From Escherichia coli (GTDB taxonomy: Bacteria > Pseudomonadota > Gammaproteobacteria > Enterobacterales > Enterobacteriaceae): DNA of 34,224 nt. Location of the stretch: assembly GCA_025544715.1 (NCBI GenBank), contig GCA_025544715.1_4109.4; one strand, written 5' to 3'. This document shows positions 5,396 through 34,183 of this stretch, in pieces (position 1 is the first letter of the stretch; every line of letters starts with the position of its first letter). Both the position numbers and the translations under genes were made by a program. The notes under the pieces were generated by a model, which was given only the letters and a program-made list of their open reading frames with translations, was not told the origin of the DNA and ran no database searches.

Positions 5396-6598
5396 ATGTT
5401 ACCTTTTGGAAGAATGATTAAGTACGCAAATATTGCACCAGGTCCAGAACCTGTAGAGTTCTCAGATGTTTTACAACAACATTATACAAACTGTATGTAT
5501 CTACATAACCCAACTAATACTTTATATGGTTATGGTAGTAATAACATGTATCAATTTGGTCTTGGGAATTCAGCAGCAGTTTCGTCATTTACAGTACTTG
5601 CAAGGAACTGTGCAGCCTTTTGGCTTGGTGTTCAAGGTTCATTGATGATTGATTTGGATAATAAAATATACTACACTGGGTCGGTTGGTGCATTTTCTGA
5701 TTATGGAGATGCAACACCTGTTAATGGTTATTTGACAACATGGACTGATGTTACTGTTGCATTTAATAAAATAGGTGTTATGGCTAATATGATCAAGAGT
5801 GTATATATAGGTGAAAGTACTAGAATATTATTAACCGATGGTAGAGTAATTGCGTGTGGAAGAAATACCAATGGTGAATGTGGCTCTGGTAATAAAAATT
5901 CCATCCCTACACTCACAGTTATGACTAATATGGGTGAAGTTACACATATGGCATGTTCATTACAAGGAACGCACTATATCAAATCAAATAAAGATGCATG
6001 GTTTTGTGGTAAGGATAACTTTGGTGAAAGTGGATGTGGTGGTAGTTCTGTTGTATATTTGAACAAATTCGTGATTAGTAATGTAGAACATATTAGTACT
6101 ACATACGATGTTACATGGTGGTTTACTACTGGTGGGCCTGTATATTATAGCGGGGCTAACAGTACTGGACAAGCGGGTAATGGTACGACTACATCGGTAA
6201 ATCAGCTAACACCAATTAGGAACACATCGGTCACGGTTGATGTAAGTAAGTACAGTACTTTTATTTGTCCAAGTAATATGGGAAATGCATCAATTGGTGC
6301 ACCTATGGCACAATACGCACCATATGTTAGAAGTAGTGGTGCTAACTCATATGGTCAAGAAGGTAATGGAACTAATACATTAGTTAGAACTTGGAATATT
6401 TTTAATCTTAGTGCAATAAGTGGTGGTTATGAAAATGTTCTTATGGCATCTAAAGATTGGAGCAGAACCATAATAATTACTAAAGATTATAAATTATATG
6501 CATGTGGTGGCTGGAATGGAAATGGTGGTAGATTGCCAGATGGCACTTATAGTATTACTACACTAACATTAATGCCAACGCAGTTATGGCAACAATAG
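5396..6598 (+). CDS. leader-tagged RCC1-like beta-propeller protein, 400 aa
   Basis: ATG after AAGGAGG; N-term MLPFGRMIKYAN; repeated GxNxxG(Q/E)xGxG motifs (NGECGSGN, GQAGNGT, GQEGNGT); S/T/N/G/Y-rich. Confidence 0.8.
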   Translation: MLPFGRMIKYANIAPGPEPVEFSDVLQQHYTNCMYLHNPTNTLYGYGSNNMYQFGLGNSAAVSSFTVLARNCAAFWLGVQGSLMIDLDNKIYYTGSVGAFSDYGDATPVNGYLTTWTDVTVAFNKIGVMANMIKSVYIGESTRILLTDGRVIACGRNTNGECGSGNKNSIPTLTVMTNMGEVTHMACSLQGTHYIKSNKDAWFCGKDNFGESGCGGSSVVYLNKFVISNVEHISTTYDVTWWFTTGGPVYYSGANSTGQAGNGTTTSVNQLTPIRNTSVTVDVSKYSTFICPSNMGNASIGAPMAQYAPYVRSSGANSYGQEGNGTNTLVRTWNIFNLSAISGGYENVLMASKDWSRTIIITKDYKLYACGGWNGNGGRLPDGTYSITTLTLMPTQLWQQ

Positions 6599-6606
6599 GA
6601 GGGAAT

Positions 6607-7716
6607 ATGTTACCTTTTGGAAGAATAATTAGGTATGGAAATATTGTCCCTGGTCCTAAAAAAATAATTAAAGTTGGTGCTTCTACCCAAGGCCAATTCT
6701 TATTGACTGATTCACATGATTTATATTACATAGGTAGAAATCAAGGTGGTGAATCTGGAAATGGTAATACCAACACGGTGTCTTCGTGGACATTAGTAAG
6801 TGCAGATGTTTCTAATTTTTTCGTGGGTGATCGTACACTTGTTATTATTAAAAATGATAATACGATATGGACATCAGGTCAAACGTACTGGTTCTCATCT
6901 TCTACAACTACTTCTTACAGTACTGTATTAGTTGAAAGAACTAATTGGTTTACCAATGCTATACCAGTAAGTGAAATTGCTAATATTGTATGTACAAATG
7001 GTTTAATATTTGTACTTAGCACTAATTCAGTACTCTATGGTGCAGGAGATAATGGATATCGTGGTTCTTTGGGTATTGGTTCATCATCAATTTACACATT
7101 AACTCAATGTGCTACGAACGTTCGTAAAGTAATGACCAATGCGAATGATAGTATGTATCTTACATTAGATAATAAGCTATATAGTTCTGGATGGAATAGT
7201 AGTGGGCAGCATGGTACGGGGAACCAAACACAAATTAACACTTGGGGATTGCGTAGTTCTGGTGTAATCGATGCAGCCATTGGTGGTAATGCATTAAATT
7301 ACTATAATGGTACATCATATTTCGTATGTGGTCAAACTCCAAACTTTCTTAGTTCAGGTACGACTACATTCCGTGCAGTTCCTTTAAGTACTTTGCCTAA
7401 TAGTTCTCCGTTGTTTATGACGAATTCACCTGCCTTAAATACTGCTACACAAATGGTAATTACCAGTACATATCAGAAGGGTGTTGGGGCGAACCGTGGT
7501 TTGGGATTAAACAATTCTCAAACTGGTGCTATATATAGTGCTACCAATTTACAATTACCCGTTGAAGTTAGTGAGATTAGGGATGTTCTTTTTAGTGATG
7601 GTTTGACATCGATATTAACCAAAAATGGAGATGTGTATAGTACTGGATCGTATTACGCCATTCCAGGTGCAATCGAGGATGTTGCAGTCTTTACTAAAAT
7701 TGATTTACCAAAATAA
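6607..7716 (+). CDS. leader-tagged RCC1-like beta-propeller protein, 369 aa
   Basis: Track ORF starts upstream; family start MLPFGRIIRYGN is ATG 6607 with SD AGGAGGG overlapping upstream stop; motifs GGESGNGN, GQHGTGN. Confidence 0.8.
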   Translation: MLPFGRIIRYGNIVPGPKKIIKVGASTQGQFLLTDSHDLYYIGRNQGGESGNGNTNTVSSWTLVSADVSNFFVGDRTLVIIKNDNTIWTSGQTYWFSSSTTTSYSTVLVERTNWFTNAIPVSEIANIVCTNGLIFVLSTNSVLYGAGDNGYRGSLGIGSSSIYTLTQCATNVRKVMTNANDSMYLTLDNKLYSSGWNSSGQHGTGNQTQINTWGLRSSGVIDAAIGGNALNYYNGTSYFVCGQTPNFLSSGTTTFRAVPLSTLPNSSPLFMTNSPALNTATQMVITSTYQKGVGANRGLGLNNSQTGAIYSATNLQLPVEVSEIRDVLFSDGLTSILTKNGDVYSTGSYYAIPGAIEDVAVFTKIDLPK

Positions 7717-7722
7717 CATAAT

Positions 7723-7747
7723 GCCAGTACAGAGTACTGGCTTTCTT
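7723..7747 (+). terminator. intrinsic terminator (GCCAGTAC-aga-GTACTGGC plus T-tract)
   Basis: Perfect 8-bp stem, 3-nt loop, followed by TTTCTTATTT; just after the stop at 7714-7716. Confidence 0.65.
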
Positions 7748-7787
7748 ATTTGTATTAAATATAGTATAATGAATAAAGGAGGAATTT
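7748..7787 (+). promoter_or_regulatory. conserved 5' cassette (TATAAT -10-like element, SD AAAGGAGG)
   Basis: TTGTATTAAATATAGTATAATGAATAAAGGAGG repeated almost identically upstream of four other family genes; -35 poorly matched. Confidence 0.4.
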
Positions 7788-16808: not shown

Positions 16809-17143
16809 TAGTACCTCGCATCAGGAACTTTAGCACGTAACTTATGAACGACTGGGAACAACAACAAACTTACATATGCAATAGTTGAACCCCAATAGAA
16901 TACTAATACAATTGGTTCACCATTAGAACGGAAACCTCTACTAATCATTGAGTAGTGAATAATAGGCATAATCATCGCCATACCAAACCATGCGTGTAAT
17001 TTTAATTGCAGCATGTTATCAGCGATGAATACTGAAATTGGTCGTTTAAAGAACCACATCAGAAAGTAGAATCCAGCACTAATAATATAGTACATGGTAC
17101 TAACTTTCATATACCACGGCAGTAAATCAATAAAGTACTCCAT
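16808..17143 (-). CDS. paralogous small membrane protein (tandem array), about 111 aa
   Basis: Second ATG preferred by SD GGAGGA spacing; C-term RAKVPDARY. Confidence 0.65.
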   Translation of the reverse strand: MEYFIDLLPWYMKVSTMYYIISAGFYFLMWFFKRPISVFIADNMLQLKLHAWFGMAMIMPIIHYSMISRGFRSNGEPIVLVFYWGSTIAYVSLLLFPVVHKLRAKVPDARY

Positions 17144-17490
17144 CATTCCTCCGGTATCTTGTTTCGAAGGTCAATCATAACACAACAAAGTTTAATGATC
17201 AAGTGAAAAAATACACATATCATACCAATTGTTCCATAAACGACTGAAAAAGCAGGTAGTGCTTTTCCGGCTAGAACAGCCACAATACATGCAATCAATG
17301 TTGATGCAAACAACGATTGATTAATGAAAGAATTCATAAAATCTTTACCATTACGCTTATAGAATTGTCGTTTAAAATACCATCCTAGAAACATAACCAC
17401 CCAAAATGTTACATAACCTGTTAGAATAATCCCTGCAAGTGAATGTGCAACTGGACTACTCCTTAAAAACTCAATATAAGCTTCAAACAT
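17143..17490 (-). CDS. paralogous small membrane protein (tandem array), 115 aa
   Basis: ATG; C-term DLRNKIPEE. Confidence 0.65.
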   Translation of the reverse strand: MFEAYIEFLRSSPVAHSLAGIILTGYVTFWVVMFLGWYFKRQFYKRNGKDFMNSFINQSLFASTLIACIVAVLAGKALPAFSVVYGTIGMICVFFHLIIKLCCVMIDLRNKIPEE

Positions 17491-17828
17491 TAGAAGTCTC
17501 CGCGAATTTTATCTCTACCATGAATAATGAGATGGATTAAGTATACACCTAACCAAATGAACAACCCAAAGAATACAATATATTGCGAGATTGAGTTCAA
17601 GTGAGGATTAGCACAATAAATTAAGTGTGCCATAAGACCAACAATTGCAAACAAACCTTGAACAAGTGTGTAAAGAACTAGTGATGAATTCCTCACTGGA
17701 TACAGTTTAAAAACAATTTTCTTTTTAAAATACCACAGTACTACAACCAGTGCATGATAAAAGAAAAAACCAAAAAGATAAATCAAAGTAATACTAAGCA
17801 TTGTATCTGACTTAAAGAATGTTAACAT
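17490..17828 (-). CDS. paralogous small membrane protein (tandem array), 112 aa
   Basis: N-term MLTFFKSDTMLSITLIYLF; near-duplicate of 17828..18169. Confidence 0.7.
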   Translation of the reverse strand: MLTFFKSDTMLSITLIYLFGFFFYHALVVVLWYFKKKIVFKLYPVRNSSLVLYTLVQGLFAIVGLMAHLIYCANPHLNSISQYIVFFGLFIWLGVYLIHLIIHGRDKIRGDF

Positions 17829-18169
17829 TAGAATTCCCCTTTAATTCTATCACGAGCTTTAATAATAAAGTACATGCTACACACCAACAACCACACGATT
17901 AGACCTGAAAAAACAAGATATTGTGTAATGTGTGGTGTATTATCAATTTGTAACATGTAAATCGCATATATCATCACACCAAATAAAATAAACCCACCTT
18001 GGATAATACTATATAAAACTAAGACTACATTATCATACGAATACAATTTAAAAACAATTTTCCTTTTAAAATACCACAGACTAATTACAATTGAATGATA
18101 ACACAAAAATACAAACATGTAAATTAGCGTGATACCAAGCATTGTATCTGAATTAAAAAACTCAAGCAT
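17828..18169 (-). CDS. paralogous small membrane protein (tandem array), 113 aa
   Basis: N-term MLEFFNSDTMLGITLIYMF; C-term KARDRIKGEF; SD GGAGA. Confidence 0.7.
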   Translation of the reverse strand: MLEFFNSDTMLGITLIYMFVFLCYHSIVISLWYFKRKIVFKLYSYDNVVLVLYSIIQGGFILFGVMIYAIYMLQIDNTPHITQYLVFSGLIVWLLVCSMYFIIKARDRIKGEF

Positions 18170-18198: not shown

Positions 18199-18227
18199 AT
18201 AGTACTACACTATGGTAGTACTGTCAA
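18199..18227 (-). promoter_or_regulatory. sigma70-like promoter TTGACA-17-TACTAT with inverted repeat GTAGTACT/AGTACTAC in the spacer
   Basis: Minus-strand read: TTGACA (plus 18222-18227), 17-nt spacer, TACTAT (plus 18199-18204); upstream of the membrane-protein array. Confidence 0.5.
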
Positions 18228-18234
18228 TATTGAA

Positions 18235-19005
18235 TTAAATTTTTTCAAGGAACAAGTTTTCGCACTGTTCTTCCCAATCGTATGGGTTGTTGTTATATAC
18301 TGCCGAAATCAACAGTGGCATACGCAGTGAAGGCGAACGAAGAGAATCTTCGTGCTTCAACATCCAATTCAGAATTGCTTTACTACCATTACGGTTAATA
18401 CCCTTAGATTCTAAAATGTTAGTCTGATTCATCACGTTCTCAATGTGAATCATGATATCGCTTTTGGTCTGAATCTGTAAGTCAACGTATACAGAACGAG
18501 ACATAAGAGCAGCATAGTGAGCAGACATTTTAGTTTTAGCTTTAGAATCTAATGCTAAATCTTTGTTAGTGATGAATACGATACGACCGTTGAAATCAAA
18601 GCTGTTAGGGATACCGTTGGTGCTCAGGTACTTAGAGCTAGTCATATAAGACACGGTACGCTTACCACTATCCAGTACTGCTTTGAGCAGGTTCATACCG
18701 TCTTCAGAATCAAAGATGCTGTCCATATCGTCCAGTACTAACACGTTGGTTCTATGACGATTCTTGTACAGAACTTCGTACAGAGCCAGAGTAGTCATTT
18801 TACCACTGATGGTAGCTACGTTCCATTCTGCTGCGTCATGAGCTTTCTGGAGGCGTTGTGACAGGGTGTAAGTCTTACCAACACCAGGTGCACCGCTGAC
18901 AACCATACTTTTTACAGTACTGCTATCGTCGAGCAAACACTCAAGAGCAACCATCATGGAGTTGAAGTTTTTCTGGATTTGAATGCTACGTGCTTCTCTG
19001 GTCAT
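18235..19005 (-). CDS. P-loop NTPase (Walker A GAPGVGKT, Walker B VLVLDD), 256 aa
   Basis: ATG with SD GAGGAT; Walker motifs read directly; single-gene unit between a cassette and the next promoter. Confidence 0.75.
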   Translation of the reverse strand: MTREARSIQIQKNFNSMMVALECLLDDSSTVKSMVVSGAPGVGKTYTLSQRLQKAHDAAEWNVATISGKMTTLALYEVLYKNRHRTNVLVLDDMDSIFDSEDGMNLLKAVLDSGKRTVSYMTSSKYLSTNGIPNSFDFNGRIVFITNKDLALDSKAKTKMSAHYAALMSRSVYVDLQIQTKSDIMIHIENVMNQTNILESKGINRNGSKAILNWMLKHEDSLRSPSLRMPLLISAVYNNNPYDWEEQCENLFLEKI

Positions 19006-19081: not shown

Positions 19082-19408
19082 TTAATACACACAATTACCC
19101 ATATCAATATTTTTACCATTATAGGTAATAATATATTTTATCTTATTAGGTTTAATAACAAAAACTTTTAATTTTTGATTCAATTTATCATTTGAAAAAA
19201 TAGTATACGAACCACTTCCATCTTTAAATACTTCTTGACTTTCAAACATAAACTTCTTTCCATCTATTTTTGCTGTTTGTGTTGTTACATCCAAATACAA
19301 ATTGTAGATAGTGTCAGTTTTTGTGGATTTACATGTTGTTGATGCTTCAGTTTTTGCATTCACTGTTGTTGATAAACACATTAACATAACTAACATTAAC
19401 TTTTTCAT
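19082..19408 (-). CDS. small secreted protein (signal peptide), 108 aa
   Basis: ATG with SD GAGG; N-term MKKLMLVMLMCLSTTVNA. Confidence 0.65.
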   Translation of the reverse strand: MKKLMLVMLMCLSTTVNAKTEASTTCKSTKTDTIYNLYLDVTTQTAKIDGKKFMFESQEVFKDGSGSYTIFSNDKLNQKLKVFVIKPNKIKYIITYNGKNIDMGNCVY

Positions 19409-22795: not shown

Positions 22796-23047
22796 TTAGA
22801 AGAACACAAACCAAGTCCAGAATAAATTCCACACTACAAATAAAGACATAGTAATTTTATGTACAATATCAGCAGTACTGGTCCATCCTCCCCCGTGTCC
22901 TATCCCATTTATGAATAGAACTAAGAACAATATACCATTTACTACAATAGTACATACTAAGTACACAAACACATTCCATGCAAGTTCAGGGGATACTAAA
23001 GTAAATGGTAAAACAATTAGTAGTATTAGAAATAATAAAATTTTCAT
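22796..23047 (-). CDS. small membrane protein, 83 aa
   Basis: ATG with SD GAGGCG; hydrophobic throughout. Confidence 0.6.
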   Translation of the reverse strand: MKILLFLILLIVLPFTLVSPELAWNVFVYLVCTIVVNGILFLVLFINGIGHGGGWTSTADIVHKITMSLFVVWNLFWTWFVFF

Positions 23048-24549: not shown

Positions 24550-24894
24550 CTATCGATTCGGCATATTCTTACGTAGTCGCAAGAGAAATTCAACTACTGA
24601 CCATGTTGTAATGAAGGCAATATAAGTTGCAAGGAATCCGGTAAGAATAAATGCAACCAGCGTACTACCATTTGGTGCATCAGTTTTAATGCCGATGACA
24701 CCATCGGCTACAGTGAAACATGTAGCCATTAATGTGTAACCTACGTACAACACAAAGAAAAACTCATTCTCCATTGAAGGATAGAAACGGTTAAACACTT
24801 TATAAAATTTAAAGTACAGTAGGATTATACCAACAAAGGCATAGAATGTAAACAGTGTTGTTATAATATATGAGATTAGGTTCAAATTATACAT
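24550..24894 (-). CDS. paralogous small membrane protein (second array), about 114 aa (start moved to internal ATG)
   Basis: Track start GTG; ATG 24892-24894 with SD GGAG just after upstream stop; C-term RLRKNMPNR. Confidence 0.6.
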   Translation of the reverse strand: MYNLNLISYIITTLFTFYAFVGIILLYFKFYKVFNRFYPSMENEFFFVLYVGYTLMATCFTVADGVIGIKTDAPNGSTLVAFILTGFLATYIAFITTWSVVEFLLRLRKNMPNR

Positions 24895-24895
24895 A

Positions 24896-25237
24896 TCAAC
24901 GCTCCGGTAGATTATCACGTAATGTTTTAATTCGATTATACATTTTCATACCAATATTACCAAAGATACCATATCCAAGTACTAAAATGTATGCAATAAG
25001 CATAGTAATAATTACTATAGTACCAAAACTATAATGTACACTACTGATACCCATTGTAGTTTCAACGATTATTTGAGAAACTGAAAGAATCAAAAGTACA
25101 ACTACAATTGGATGATTTGGGTACATTCGGTTGAACAACGTTTTGTACTTAAAGAAGCACAGTACTCCACCGAATAAGAAGTAAACAATGTAAATGCAAG
25201 CAACAGCATAGGCAAACATGTTAGTGTAATAAATCAT
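24896..25237 (-). CDS. paralogous small membrane protein (second array), about 113 aa (start moved to internal ATG)
   Basis: Track start TTG; ATG two codons in with SD AAGGA; C-term TLRDNLPER. Confidence 0.6.
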   Translation of the reverse strand: MIYYTNMFAYAVACIYIVYFLFGGVLCFFKYKTLFNRMYPNHPIVVVLLILSVSQIIVETTMGISSVHYSFGTIVIITMLIAYILVLGYGIFGNIGMKMYNRIKTLRDNLPER

Positions 25238-25246
25238 TACCAATCC

Positions 25247-25585
25247 TTACTTTTCAGGGATATTAGAACGCCATATATCAATGCGATGAACTAGTCCAAA
25301 GAACAACCATACTGGAACGGCAGCTATCATAACAACAAATGAAAACCCAGTCAAGACCGATACCAGATTTAATTCATCAGTACTATACCCACATATCAGT
25401 ACTTCTAATATTCCCCACGTACATGCACAAAACATCAAGAATGAAATGGGGGCATCATAGTAGATACGTTCATATAAAGTAGTGTATCGGAAGAATGCAA
25501 TAATGTAGCAAAACATATAATACACCCAAACCAAAGATACTACATAAAATGATACTTTGTTTATTAATTCAAAATATTGTTCCAT
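25247..25585 (-). CDS. paralogous small membrane protein (second array), 112 aa
   Basis: ATG; C-term IWRSNIPEK. Confidence 0.65.
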   Translation of the reverse strand: MEQYFELINKVSFYVVSLVWVYYMFCYIIAFFRYTTLYERIYYDAPISFLMFCACTWGILEVLICGYSTDELNLVSVLTGFSFVVMIAAVPVWLFFGLVHRIDIWRSNIPEK

Positions 25586-25587
25586 TG

Positions 25588-25869
25588 TTACCCCAATATA
25601 TATTCAGAGAGTAATGTATTAGCTTCATCTTTGTTCTTAAGGTAATACATGTAATATAGATTCGGTTCACCATCTTTAGCACTCAAATCGAAGTACTTTA
25701 AACTATGTACTTTCATAGTAAAAACAAATAATGACTTAAAACCAATCTCACCGTACTTAACAAACAGTTCATCCAAATGAATGTAACTTTTTGATTTGAA
25801 TAATTCTTTAACGTCTGCATCAATTTCAGATAAAAGATGCTTACCTATTAAGTTTTCAAATGAACGCAT
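25588..25869 (-). CDS. hypothetical protein, 93 aa
   Basis: ATG with SD AAGGAT. Confidence 0.6.
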   Translation of the reverse strand: MRSFENLIGKHLLSEIDADVKELFKSKSYIHLDELFVKYGEIGFKSLFVFTMKVHSLKYFDLSAKDGEPNLYYMYYLKNKDEANTLLSEYILG

Positions 25870-25873
25870 GATT

Positions 25874-26287
25874 TTATCCTTTTACACAATTTGACATAAT
25901 GTAAACACGTTTAATAAAAGAACTTTCATACACGTACTTCAACTTGCCATTCTCACGTAAGCGGTGGAAAACATCACCTTTGTTGGTACTCCACGTGGAA
26001 CCAGTACTGACATCTACATTAGCCATTGACCCACTGGTTACATTAATACCATACTTAAAACTAAAAGTTTCTCCGTCTTCAACTAATGTCACAGGCGTGC
26101 TACGTTCATATTCAAATACAAGTTTAGAACCAATCATCTCATATGATTTCAATTTACACTTCATTACACCCATTTCATCTTGAGTGGGTAGATTTCTTTC
26201 AAATATATCAGAAACTTCGTTTGCAGAAGCAAATGAACTCATGGTCATTAATACAATACCAGTTACAATTAAAATAATATTTTTCAT
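25874..26287 (-). CDS. secreted protein (signal peptide), 137 aa; paralog of 27056..27475
   Basis: N-term MKNIILIVTGIVLMTMSSFASA; shared motifs FSFKYG, LKYVYES, C-terminal NC(V)K. Confidence 0.65.
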   Translation of the reverse strand: MKNIILIVTGIVLMTMSSFASANEVSDIFERNLPTQDEMGVMKCKLKSYEMIGSKLVFEYERSTPVTLVEDGETFSFKYGINVTSGSMANVDVSTGSTWSTNKGDVFHRLRENGKLKYVYESSFIKRVYIMSNCVKG

Positions 26288-26344: not shown

Positions 26345-26986
26345 TCAATAAAAAACTGGATCTTCTTCAGTAATTGGTATTTCTCTACGCACATCACACG
26401 AAAGAGGATCAGTAATGAATACATTCCCATCTTTATCCATCATTACATTACTTGAATGAATGTCTGGTACAAATCGCCCGTGAAACTCTTTCATGATGTT
26501 AGCTGCGACCGTTGCAATTGCAATCTCTTCAGAATTTCCACGCATATCATTCACTGAAGTTGCGTACTGACCAGCATGTGCATACGAATACAAATCACCA
26601 ATTTTAGTACTAACAAAGTCATCATAATTATTTTTTTGTTTAATTATAGGATAGTACTTGTCCATCTCATACCATCCAAAGTTTCCTTGTTCGTTGGCAC
26701 TGTAGATCACTGGAAGAAACTTGGTTCCTGCGTTTTCAATGCAGTACTTTGCATAAGCACGAAAACCATCCCAGCGGGAAGTGGTTACTTTAAATGCACG
26801 TCCAGGATAGTTTTTATGTTCAACTACTACAGAGTACATCCCCATTCCAAGCAAAGTAAGTCCAGCAGCTTTAACTTGTGGAAAGATTACGCGTTCAGCA
26901 TAAGGAATATCAAACTCCATCGCACAACGAGTTTTTGATGGACGCAAAATGTCAATTAAAGTTTTGAATATTTCTTGCTTAGTCAT
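26345..26986 (-). CDS. protein-kinase-like protein, about 213 aa (start moved to internal ATG)
   Basis: Track start ATGATG lies inside the promoter -10; ATG 26984-26986 has SD AGAGGAT; motifs LLGMGMYSVV, AFKV, PDIHSSNVMMDKDGNVFITDP. Confidence 0.55.
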   Translation of the reverse strand: MTKQEIFKTLIDILRPSKTRCAMEFDIPYAERVIFPQVKAAGLTLLGMGMYSVVVEHKNYPGRAFKVTTSRWDGFRAYAKYCIENAGTKFLPVIYSANEQGNFGWYEMDKYYPIIKQKNNYDDFVSTKIGDLYSYAHAGQYATSVNDMRGNSEEIAIATVAANIMKEFHGRFVPDIHSSNVMMDKDGNVFITDPLSCDVRREIPITEEDPVFY

Positions 26987-27014
26987 TACTTTATCCTCTG
27001 TAGTTAATATCAAC

Positions 27015-27047
27015 ATCATAACAAAAAAGGCTGACCGAAGTCAACCC
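27015..27047 (-). terminator. bifunctional terminator/promoter cassette (copy 4; -10 TATGAT)
   Basis: AAAAAAGGCTGACCGAAGTCAACCCTTTT; TTGACT in hairpin, TATGAT about 18 nt downstream. Confidence 0.65.
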
Positions 27048-27055
27048 TTTTATTA

Positions 27056-27475
27056 TCATTTACAGTTTTCTATAACTATTGCACGTTTTAGTATTTTACT
27101 TTCATAAACATACTTAAGATGACCTTCTTCACGAATACGATTGAACACATATCCTAGTTTATCTTTTAGTACTGAAGCCGTATCAATGTCAAGATTAACT
27201 TCAACCCCTCCTGTTAATTTAACTTTATATGTAAAGCTAAAAGCATCCCCAGATTCAACCAATGGGACTACTTGTTCATACGTATTCAACATAACTCGTT
27301 CATCATTAACTAAATTATATATTACAATATCACAAGTTTTTACCCCAATTTCCTCTAAGGTAGGAGCATTGTCTACTATAACATCTTTTACTGTATTAGC
27401 AACCTGTTTAGCATCTGCTGCATATACATTAAAACTAAAAAGTACTAAAATAATACTTAAAAAAATCTTTTTCAT
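27056..27475 (-). CDS. secreted protein (signal peptide), 139 aa; paralog of 25874..26287
   Basis: N-term MKKIFLSIILVLFSFNVYA; SD AAGGAT. Confidence 0.65.
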   Translation of the reverse strand: MKKIFLSIILVLFSFNVYAADAKQVANTVKDVIVDNAPTLEEIGVKTCDIVIYNLVNDERVMLNTYEQVVPLVESGDAFSFTYKVKLTGGVEVNLDIDTASVLKDKLGYVFNRIREEGHLKYVYESKILKRAIVIENCK

Positions 27476-33082: not shown

Positions 33083-33433
33083 TCAATCCTTATATTTACA
33101 CAAGCCACCAAAACTAGTTTCTTTAGCACCACGACGCATCATAACTAATTTAGCATATTGTGTGCCATTACTATCTTCATATACATCTACTTCAATAAAC
33201 GCTAAGAAGTTAGGGTCTGTATCGTTGGAAAACTCAGTGAAGCTAATGTCGCCTACAGTATGCTCTTTAACAAACGTATATGATTGCCCATCAATGTATA
33301 CAATATCTCTATCATCACTATCACCTTGATAGATATGTTTAATATTACCATCTGTACAAACTAAACCTTCTAATGGTTCAGCATATGACAACCCACACAT
33401 TAACATACATACAAAAAATAAAATAGTTTTCAT
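33083..33433 (-). CDS. secreted protein (signal peptide), 116 aa
   Basis: N-term MKTILFFVCMLMCGLSYA. Confidence 0.6.
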   Translation of the reverse strand: MKTILFFVCMLMCGLSYAEPLEGLVCTDGNIKHIYQGDSDDRDIVYIDGQSYTFVKEHTVGDISFTEFSNDTDPNFLAFIEVDVYEDSNGTQYAKLVMMRRGAKETSFGGLCKYKD

Positions 33434-33435
33434 GA

Positions 33436-33813
33436 TTATTTTCCTCCAACGTTAAGTGATTTCTTGTACTGATATTCTTTATAAGTACTATACCATATAT
33501 CACCAACGTAAATCAAGTACCACGTAGCAGGATAAAGAGCCAATCCAGTACTGATGTATACGAACTTTTGGTCAAGGACATCAAATACATGCAGAAGGAA
33601 AGTTACTCCCATAATGCAAGAACAAATTAACCATAAGTTATAAGCAATTGAATCGCAAGCAAAAATAGAATCAAGCTTAGAAATTAGGACATATTTGTTT
33701 GTTAAAATAAAATGAATTACTGCAACTAAACAATATCCTGCCATAAAAATAGAAATTAAAAAAGACAGAATAATTGGAATATTCAACAACAAAAGTAAAA
33801 TAGTGTTTACCAT
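33436..33813 (-). CDS. small membrane protein, 125 aa
   Basis: Several hydrophobic segments. Confidence 0.6.
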   Translation of the reverse strand: MVNTILLLLLNIPIILSFLISIFMAGYCLVAVIHFILTNKYVLISKLDSIFACDSIAYNLWLICSCIMGVTFLLHVFDVLDQKFVYISTGLALYPATWYLIYVGDIWYSTYKEYQYKKSLNVGGK

Positions 33814-33823
33814 TTTTTAAGTC

Positions 33824-34183
33824 CTATATTTCACAGTGTAAGTTCAATTTATCTATATCTAGGTCACGGCGTACCGATGAGTCCAAGTAAATTACTATAT
33901 AGATATCACCATTACCAGTTCTTGGGTCTACAATTAATATTACGTTTGCTAATGTACCAGAATCATCTCTATAAGTCGAGATTTTTTTATTACCAATAAT
34001 ACTTTCAGCCATAAATCTATAAACAATATCATCTATAACTATATTTTTACCATTTCTAGGGTCGTTAGTCAATACATGCCACGTTCCCTTAGTACTACGA
34101 CAATATGTTTCTGCTGCTGCACCATAACTAAAACATGAAAATAATGCACACACAAGTGCTATTAATTTTATATAACTTTTCAT
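33824..34183 (-). CDS. secreted protein (signal peptide), 119 aa
   Basis: N-term MKSYIKLIALVCALFSCFSYGAAA. Confidence 0.6.
   Translation of the reverse strand: MKSYIKLIALVCALFSCFSYGAAAETYCRSTKGTWHVLTNDPRNGKNIVIDDIVYRFMAESIIGNKKISTYRDDSGTLANVILIVDPRTGNGDIYIVIYLDSSVRRDLDIDKLNLHCEI

Follow-up and report, generated by a model that had tools for sequence, protein, structure and literature searches.

T4 Imm is a small inner-membrane exclusion protein that is made early, and class I holins of the lambda S105 type are proteins of about 100 aa with three transmembrane (TM) segments, an N-out/C-in topology and a charged cytoplasmic C-terminus. Here we analyze a family of small proteins with three predicted TM segments, encoded within a stretch of 34,224 nucleotides from an Escherichia coli assembly (GCA_025544715.1, contig GCA_025544715.1_4109.4) and referred to below, at its full length, as the window. 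The family is represented there by three consecutive genes, B1, B2 and B3, which constitute the B locus, and by a separate array of eight genes, A1 to A8 (Table 1); as judged from their sequences, the evidence supports the placement of these eleven genes in one family at two loci. Imm is shorter than the proteins described here, has fewer TM segments and is single-copy, and the likeness to it would lie in their all being small phage-encoded inner-membrane proteins made early, properties which for the present family we predict or infer.

A 2.5-kb query around the B locus matched 35 phage records, and the closest relatives are the Asteriusvirus phages, jumbo coliphages of ~350 kb; Escherichia phage SHEFM2K matches best, at 98.5% identity over the full length of the query, and after it come 121Q, PBECO4, G17 and others. 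To go by this nucleotide similarity, the window is part of an Asteriusvirus genome, that of a jumbo coliphage resembling 121Q and PBECO4. PHROGs already contains these proteins from phages of the 121Q, PBECO4 and RaK2 types, clustered at close range into groups of unknown function: phrog_19285 (B1 and B2, with B3 matching weakly), 19454 (A1), 19046 (A3), 27396 (A4), 33258 (A5), 26405 (A6) and 27618 (A8), with A2 outside the scan. These seven groups carry no link between the two loci, and the link made here is at the level of the superfamily. Phage GAP32, which belongs to a different genus (Mimasvirus), encodes proteins gp522-527, annotated as 'membrane protein, 3 transmembrane domains', which are of the same size and occupy the same site directly after an NrdC.10-like gene; four of the six match the hidden Markov model (HMM) of the family at E-values of 2e-10 to 9e-6, and the other two at E=0.011 and E=0.12.

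Homology of the B genes and the eight-gene array

B1, B2 and B3 are genuine genes and diverged paralogues. They lie consecutively and together fill positions 24550-25585 exactly, each is preceded by a Shine-Dalgarno sequence, and the gaps between genes are 1-9 nt. All three match phrog_19285 over the full length, and B3 is the most diverged of the three. The starts used here for B2 and B3 are the ATG codons annotated in 121Q and SHEFM2K; the mechanical calls were 24896-25243 (TTG) for B2 and 24550-24918 (GTG) for B3. Within the B locus the relationships are apparent by BLASTP (B1-B2, E=2e-8; B2-B3, E=1.5e-5), and across the loci they are marginal, the best pair being A8-B1 at E=0.002 with 13 candidate TM open reading frames (ORFs) as the database. 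Because pairwise BLASTP is too weak across the loci, orthologues were gathered from ever more distant genomes, beginning with WPEC5 (proteins ~80% identical), continuing through Turkey5 and phage A4 (35-41%) and ending with RaK2, a Klebsiella phage of another genus, and profiles were compared.

Profiles built from four genomes and compared with hhalign unite the B genes strongly (B1-B2, E=3.3e-16; B1-B3, E=2.2e-12; B2-B3, E=3.2e-12), and also give matches across the loci (A3-B1, E=1.6e-6; A1/2-B1, E=2.9e-5) against a noise floor of ~0.01, set with reversed profiles and two unrelated families of three-TM ORFs. With five genomes, RaK2 included, a merged B profile matches A3 at E=3.9e-10 over 104 columns and A1/2 at E=8.9e-10 over 98 columns, and both alignments are nearly full length and collinear; in the corresponding controls, reversed profiles gave E-values of at least 0.003 and unrelated three-TM ORFs of at least 0.12. 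The rest of the array is chained to these members by hhalign through A3-A4 (E=2.2e-10), A3-A5 (E=5.9e-6, 94 columns), A3-A7 (E=3e-5), A6-A7 (E=2e-6) and A6-A8 (E=1.1e-6). B1-B3 are thus members of the array family by profile homology over most of their length.

The same set of genes was recovered by an iterative HMM search seeded with B1-B3 of the window alone and run against the six-frame ORFs of ten loci (655 of 60 aa or more), which converged after six rounds on 82 ORFs. All 82 are on the coding strand and lie either in B loci or in arrays adjacent to an ATPase gene of the NrdC.10 type. The recruits in the window are exactly the eleven genes of Table 1, with A3 (E=1.2e-6), A2 (E=7.3e-6), A8 (E=3.9e-4) and A1 (E=6e-4) matching at the second iteration and A7 (E=1.1e-6), A6 (E=2e-6) and A5 (E=1.7e-5) at the third; the next window ORF has an E-value of at least 0.26. 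Another 43 multi-TM ORFs of 70-170 aa in the searched set were not recruited, the best of them being an array-terminal ORF in MG12 at E=0.006. The final HMM was also applied to a relative with a complete genome, TH47, with all of its 1,952 six-frame ORFs as the target. It matched ten of them, seven array genes and three B-locus genes, with E-values of 4e-14 or below, and no other ORF did better than E=0.2, which is higher by 13 orders of magnitude; the family is therefore confined to exactly two loci. Two further multi-TM ORFs of the window, at 33436-33813 (125 aa) and 22796-23047 (83 aa), both on the minus strand, were considered as candidate members and rejected (family HMM E>10; hhalign E of at least 0.12). 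Both are kept in relatives.

An earlier, sequence-only reading of this DNA had drawn attention to three ORFs at 24550-25585 about 7 kb from the array, and had proposed from their C-termini, said to match a motif of the array, that one membrane-protein family sits at two loci. The ORF list contains these three ORFs with precisely the C-termini quoted, and the profile and HMM comparisons above bear out the single family at two loci. The separation of the loci is likewise confirmed, with a measured gap of 6.4 kb, between the start of A1 (18169) and the end of B3 (24550), in place of the 7 kb. The motif itself, R-x-[NK]-[ILMV]-P-[EDN], occurs five times among 136 six-frame stop-to-stop window ORFs of at least 60 aa, in B1, B2, B3, A3 and A4, and every occurrence sits 7-9 residues from the C-terminus. 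In 2000 residue shufflings the mean number of C-terminal occurrences was 0.004 and the maximum was 1, so that the motif is real and the resemblance is not attributable to chance. The proposed match to the array holds for two of its eight members, A3 and A4, in both of which position 3 is Lys and not Asn, and fails for the other six: A1 and A2 have a degenerate tail, R-D-[RK]-I-[KR]-G-[ED]-F, and in A5-A8 nothing of the motif is left but the Arg/His and Ile/Leu positions, after which comes a tail rich in Lys and Arg. As the motif is confined in the array to A3 and A4, it is a mark of a sub-family (5 of 11 genes) and not of the family as a whole. The first four genes of the MG17 array have the C-termini ...RIPERD, ...SFPNR, ...RLPERR and ...KMPRRNN, and B-like tails are thus found inside a main array.

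A relationship of this kind could be mimicked by chance or by convergence if unrelated genes happened to have in common a TM composition and a short basic tail. Such an account could draw on the weakness of the cross-locus BLASTP matches, the best of which was obtained in a tiny database, on the placement of the two loci in separate PHROGs families, and on a tree whose deep nodes do not resolve; it is nevertheless extremely improbable, given that the control E-values (at least 0.003) stand against 4e-10 to 9e-10 for the true comparisons, that the iterative search leaves out the 43 other multi-TM ORFs, and that 13 orders of magnitude separate family from non-family ORFs in TH47. Two motifs at fixed positions, described below, are also common to both loci, and the ...LPER tails of the MG17 array are like those of the B genes. 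We regard a chance resemblance of the loci as effectively excluded.

Table 1. Members of the family in the window and features adjoining the two loci
Feature	Position	Strand	Description
B1	25247-25585	minus	112 aa, three TM, C-terminus IWRSNIPEK; phrog_19285 E=3.9e-59
B2	24896-25237	minus	113 aa, three TM, C-terminus TLRDNLPER; phrog_19285 E=2.8e-57
B3	24550-24894	minus	114 aa, three TM, C-terminus RLRKNMPNR; phrog_19285 E=2.4e-4
A1	17828-18169	minus	113 aa, C-terminus RDRIKGEF; first gene of array
A2	17490-17828	minus	112 aa, C-terminus RDKIRGDF
A3	17143-17490	minus	115 aa, C-terminus LRNKIPEE; array member nearest to B genes
A4	16808-17146	minus	112 aa, C-terminus LRAKVPDARY
A5	16494-16808	minus	104 aa, basic tail FRRNQKRKRGM
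A6	16126-16494	minus	122 aa, tail MHSTIKKRKRG
A7	15762-16124	minus	120 aa from ATG at MNGIEL, tail IHQRLGMRK; mechanical ORF reaches 16187
A8	15389-15760	minus	123 aa, tail SIHNSIHNKRMS; last gene of array
NrdC.10-type P-loop ATPase gene	18235-19005	minus	256 aa, directly upstream of array; Pfam AAA, STAND-type; phrog_1250 E=2e-103
Sigma-70-like promoter match	18199-18227	minus	TTGACA-17-TACTAT, between ATPase gene and A1; consensus match only
Two ORFs	25588-26287	minus	137 aa (secreted-type) and 93 aa, directly upstream of B1 in same tightly packed transcription unit
Promoter-like site	26348-26320	minus	precedes 137-aa/93-aa ORF pair upstream of B1
T7 gp0.7-like protein kinase gene	26345-27019	minus	host-takeover type; phrog_15752 E=1.2e-98

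Architecture, distribution and evolution of the family

The family is predicted to consist of three-pass inner-membrane proteins with an N-out/C-in orientation. Its members are ~101-130 aa long with three hydrophobic segments each by hydropathy analysis; segments one and two of A4 are below the hydropathy threshold, yet they align with TM1 and TM2 of the other members, and the GAP32 homologues have three TM segments also by an independent TMHMM/Phobius annotation. In an alignment of 79 sequences, many columns of loop 1 and of the C-terminal tail are 30-70% Lys or Arg; in the N-terminus and loop 2 these residues mostly account for ~10% or less, with single columns reaching ~20%. From this distribution the N-terminus and loop 2 are predicted to be periplasmic, and loop 1 and the C-terminal tail cytoplasmic.

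Two positions are conserved almost throughout the alignment. Of the 79 sequences, 78 have a Phe where TM1 reaches the cytoplasm, in the context [IL]-[LG]-[WK]-[FY]-F-[KC], and an Arg (50 sequences) or His (29 sequences) is present in the tail of every one, within an amphipathic L-x3-L-x2-L-[RH]-x-[KN]-[IL]-[PK]-x-[RK]-[RK]; B1-B3 carry both. The sole other strongly conserved column is a Gly in the periplasmic loop, which otherwise varies in sequence and length. A loop-1 motif is common to B2, B3, A1 and A2 (FFKYKTLFNRMYP and YFKFYKVFNRFYP, to be compared with WYFKKKIVFKLYP, the form found in A2). An AlphaFold2 model of B1, of moderate confidence (predicted local distance difference test score 69, predicted template modeling score 0.38), comprises three helices at residues 2-38, 46-67 and 74-107, the conserved tail Arg being close to where helix 3 ends and NIPEK forming a non-helical tail. 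A Foldseek search of this model against BFVD gave no match better than E=0.95, and a three-helix bundle is in any case unspecific.

The family is very narrow and is confined to RaK2-like jumbo phages. Among 5.8 billion proteins, a word-indexed search found no more than 11 clusters at 90% identity, and an exhaustive HMM search of 1.84 billion proteins returned 17 representatives (50% identity) at E<=0.001, one of which is a 1090-aa protein (E=6.8e-4) that is probably spurious. With tblastn, 36 phage records were found to contain B1 and 45 to contain A4; among the 45 are nine Klebsiella RaK2-like phages, in which the A4 homologues are 37% identical. No family match was obtained in Pfam, NCBIfam or PADLOC, where the best scores, to DUF350 (E=0.054), TRAP-gamma (E=0.027) and SUR7 (E=0.0076), are far below the curated cut-offs, and none of the PADLOC defence-protein HMMs matched at E<=0.1.

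The family has expanded by tandem duplication in RaK2-like jumbo phages, with the B locus as a satellite cluster, and copy number varies at both loci. There are six array genes in GAP32, seven in WPEC5, TH47 and phage A4, and eight in the window, Turkey5 and RaK2; the metagenomic arrays have nine or more genes (MG12) and eleven (MG17), and the overall range is 6-12. The B locus contains three genes in the window (121Q-type), WPEC5, TH47 and Turkey5; phage A4 and RaK2 have a single B gene each, that of RaK2 being the syntenic ORF280, and the metagenomic relative L014 has zero B genes between its kinase and endonuclease V genes. L014 contains instead, at 1166-2272, three soluble paralogues of 125, 114 and 122 aa with a common ...FPWF/FPWY... 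C-terminal region, which represent a different small family. In Turkey5 (L007, 1521-1874) an unrelated ORF of 117 aa with no TM segment is situated between the second and third B-type genes.

A1 and A2 are 53% identical to one another (BLASTP E=3e-38), and a single gene occupies the A1/A2 position in WPEC5, TH47, Turkey5, phage A4 and RaK2, the WPEC5 copy being A2-like. The second copy in the window is either an old duplicate that has been lost in the relatives or a divergent allele stacked in tandem. In three Salmonella phages with shorter genomes of 310-326 kb, SD-1_S14, SD-2_S15 and SD-6_S16, B3 has an internal deletion (P0008, 101 aa) and the A3 genes are truncated or only partly matching, which suggests either ongoing decay or assembly problems.

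In comparisons of the window with WPEC5, the ratio of non-synonymous to synonymous substitution rates (dN/dS) is 0.11-0.39 in all ten comparable genes (B1, 0.20; B2, 0.16; B3, 0.27), and the genes are therefore held by purifying selection. The synonymous rate (dS) in the same comparison covers a tenfold range inside the array, from 0.12 for A3 and A4 to 1.31 for A8; moreover, A3 is 96.5% identical to its SHEFM2K counterpart and 86% to that of 121Q, and the neighboring A4 is 100% identical to 121Q. Such a spread of dS within a single array indicates recombinational mosaicism or allele exchange, as is typical of conflict loci. A joint alignment and tree of the members, which the sequence-only reading had put forward as the check on its proposal, was constructed by neighbor-joining with 200 bootstraps and succeeded in part: it separates the orthologue groups, but it does not order the deep branches or the duplications, nor does it show a single-copy B locus to be ancestral. 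Groups extending across genera were recovered for A8 (100%), A4 (99%), A6 (98%), A5 (76%), A1/2 (70%) and A3 (48%), and these paralogues are therefore old and individually retained; a group for A7 was not recovered in this tree (2%). The deep nodes are saturated, and the bootstrap value of the B clade is 10%.

Gene neighborhood and other paralogous families in the window

The guanine-plus-cytosine content of the region is ~35%, making it AT-rich, and from 34183 down to ~14685 it forms a single long minus-strand run of small genes, among them an endonuclease V gene (so annotated in WPEC5 and phage A4). The B locus belongs to a gene run whose first gene is the gp0.7-like kinase gene, annotated as such in 121Q and SHEFM2K; a metagenomic homologue of the kinase has a match to Pfam Phage_T7_kinase. 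The stop codon of the 93-aa ORF upstream of the B locus lies 2 nt ahead of the B1 ATG. Without exception, the best sigma-70-like matches fall on the minus strand of the region, several of them just upstream of gene starts, and between the one ahead of A1 and that gene there is a GGAG ribosome-binding site. Near neither locus is there a copy of TATAAATA, the T4 late-promoter motif, which is depleted in the region, with 2 occurrences found and 8.3 expected. Both loci are thus tightly packed operons that lack T4-type late promoters.

Further sets of paralogues were seen in the window. The 137-aa ORF upstream of the B locus, at 25874-26287, has a 139-aa paralogue at 27056-27475, also on the minus strand; both have N-termini resembling signal peptides and similar C-termini (...LKYVYES...NC). 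The ORF at 25874-26287 corresponds to a clean indel of 414 bp: 121Q and most relatives lack the ORF, and SHEFM2K and WPEC5 have it. ORFs of 108-119 aa at 19082-19408, 33083-33433 and 33824-34183 (minus strand) have signal-peptide-like N-termini followed by a Cys-containing segment (TTCKSTKTD, TYCRSTKGT), and look like another paralogous family, secreted or periplasmic. On the plus strand, at 5396-14704, eight or nine large paralogues (~250-400 aa) form a convergent array; they have an MLPFGRM-type N-terminus in common and are annotated in relatives as RCC1/ATS1-like 'chromosome condensation regulator'; the member at 9030-9785 is glycine-rich, and one member is apparently split (13540-13776 and 13808-14704).

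Candidate functions and meaning of the family

The account that we tentatively favor joins paralogy at two loci with an early role of the proteins at the inner membrane in host takeover or exclusion, a combination that is plausible, if somewhat short of probable; the takeover or exclusion mechanism taken on its own we would call possible but doubtful. According to this account, the host RNA polymerase would transcribe the family genes early, along with takeover genes such as the gp0.7-like kinase gene at the head of the B run, and the products would be inserted in the inner membrane, where their conserved cytoplasmic face would serve a common purpose, for example insertion, oligomerization or the binding of a common partner, and the variable TM and periplasmic parts would direct each paralogue to a separate target. 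Together the paralogues may constitute a battery of envelope-takeover, superinfection-exclusion or anti-defence factors, a functional analogue of T4 Imm. Operons without late motifs, the retention of the paralogues, their variable copy number and their mosaic evolution all suggest such a role.

Several observations weigh against this account. The databases offer no function beyond the generic 'membrane protein' label in PHROGs, and we found neither a description of the family nor a function for NrdC.10 in the literature; ten family members scanned for Pfam Imm_superinfect gave no match at E<=1. The most conserved positions are on the cytoplasmic side, and a shared cytoplasmic partner or assembly fits this at least as well as exclusion directed at the periplasm. 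The dN/dS values carry no sign of positive selection, and the N-out/C-in topology is itself a prediction. Promoter-like sites are not enriched in the region (74, as compared with 72.6 in shuffled sequence), and it is the strand and placement of the best of them that are suggestive, so that early timing is suggested and not more than suggested.

The architecture of the family is, by prediction, also that of class I holins, which raises the question of whether the genes encode lysis-timing proteins of the holin, antiholin or pinholin kind. RaK2 lacks homologues of T-holin and RI (PMC3622015), and the endolysin of this phage group has an N-terminal TM domain and is of the signal-anchor-release type, which normally requires a holin or pinholin, none being named in the paper that describes it (PMC5259590). 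Membership by sequence was nonetheless not found, there being no match to a Pfam holin family at E<=1 or to a holin-annotated PHROG at E<=0.1, and gene order and promoter motifs point neither to a lysis cassette nor to late expression. The endolysin is distant, at 121Q gp532 (PMC5259590), from the B locus at gp207-209 and from A3/A4 at gp225-227. Eleven paralogues in early-type operons without late-promoter motifs are unlike any known lysis cassette, and functional holins made early would kill the host prematurely. We consider it quite improbable that these are lysis proteins.

The gene directly upstream of the array offers a further possibility, namely that the family supplies membrane adaptors or subunits to the NrdC.10-type ATPase, with the cytoplasmic Phe and the Arg/His tail docking either the ATPase or one another and giving rise to a membrane-bound, possibly hetero-oligomeric machine. 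The ATPase is the orthologue of T4 NrdC.10, with ~40% identity to NrdC.10 of the T-even phages, and the array comes after its gene (encoding 254-260 aa) in each of the five lineages examined, those of the window, RaK2, GAP32, MG12 and MG17, despite differing flanking genes; in RaK2 one unrelated 104-aa ORF separates the two. The 76 additional N-terminal residues of T-even NrdC.10 were considered as a membrane anchor, which is excluded, as the extension is soluble. Both of the positions conserved across the family are cytoplasmic by prediction, the Leu/Ile residues of the tail at i, i+4, i+7 and i+11 are suited to helix-helix contacts, and every paralogue has been kept as a distinct orthologue, all of which speaks for such a role. 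However, more than 1,300 T4-like phage records carry NrdC.10, and in RB14, the sole T-even phage examined, the genes downstream of nrdC.10 (nrdC.9, nrdC.8 and nrdC.7) are unrelated to the family; the many NrdC.10 genes without an array, as in RB14, indicate that the ATPase does not need the family. The B locus, moreover, is 6.4 kb away in the kinase-headed gene run, an array size ranging from 6 to 12 argues against a complex of fixed stoichiometry, and the adjacency is explicable as inherited gene order. An adaptor role is therefore unlikely in our estimate, and we assign a similarly low probability to the broader proposition that the array and B locus form an undescribed inner-membrane system of RaK2-like jumbo phages coupled to the NrdC.10 ATPase, which might take the form of a hetero-oligomeric complex or of an ATPase-serviced battery of exclusion or anti-defence effectors. 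Were the coupling true, it would provide the first functional handle on NrdC.10.

Whatever role the proteins have, the second locus of this lineage-specific membrane family is a well-supported and fairly ordinary paralogue expansion. Some 10% of the genes of RaK2 are paralogues, and about this proportion of jumbo-phage genes belongs to paralogue families of unknown role (PMC3622015). The present analysis adds a unified definition for one such family, its confinement to exactly two loci and its conserved adjacency to NrdC.10: seven 'hypothetical' PHROGs are merged into one superfamily characterized by its three TM segments, the Phe on the cytoplasmic side and the tail with Arg or His. Annotators thereby gain a single family definition, and experimenters a small deletion target of 11 genes at two loci.

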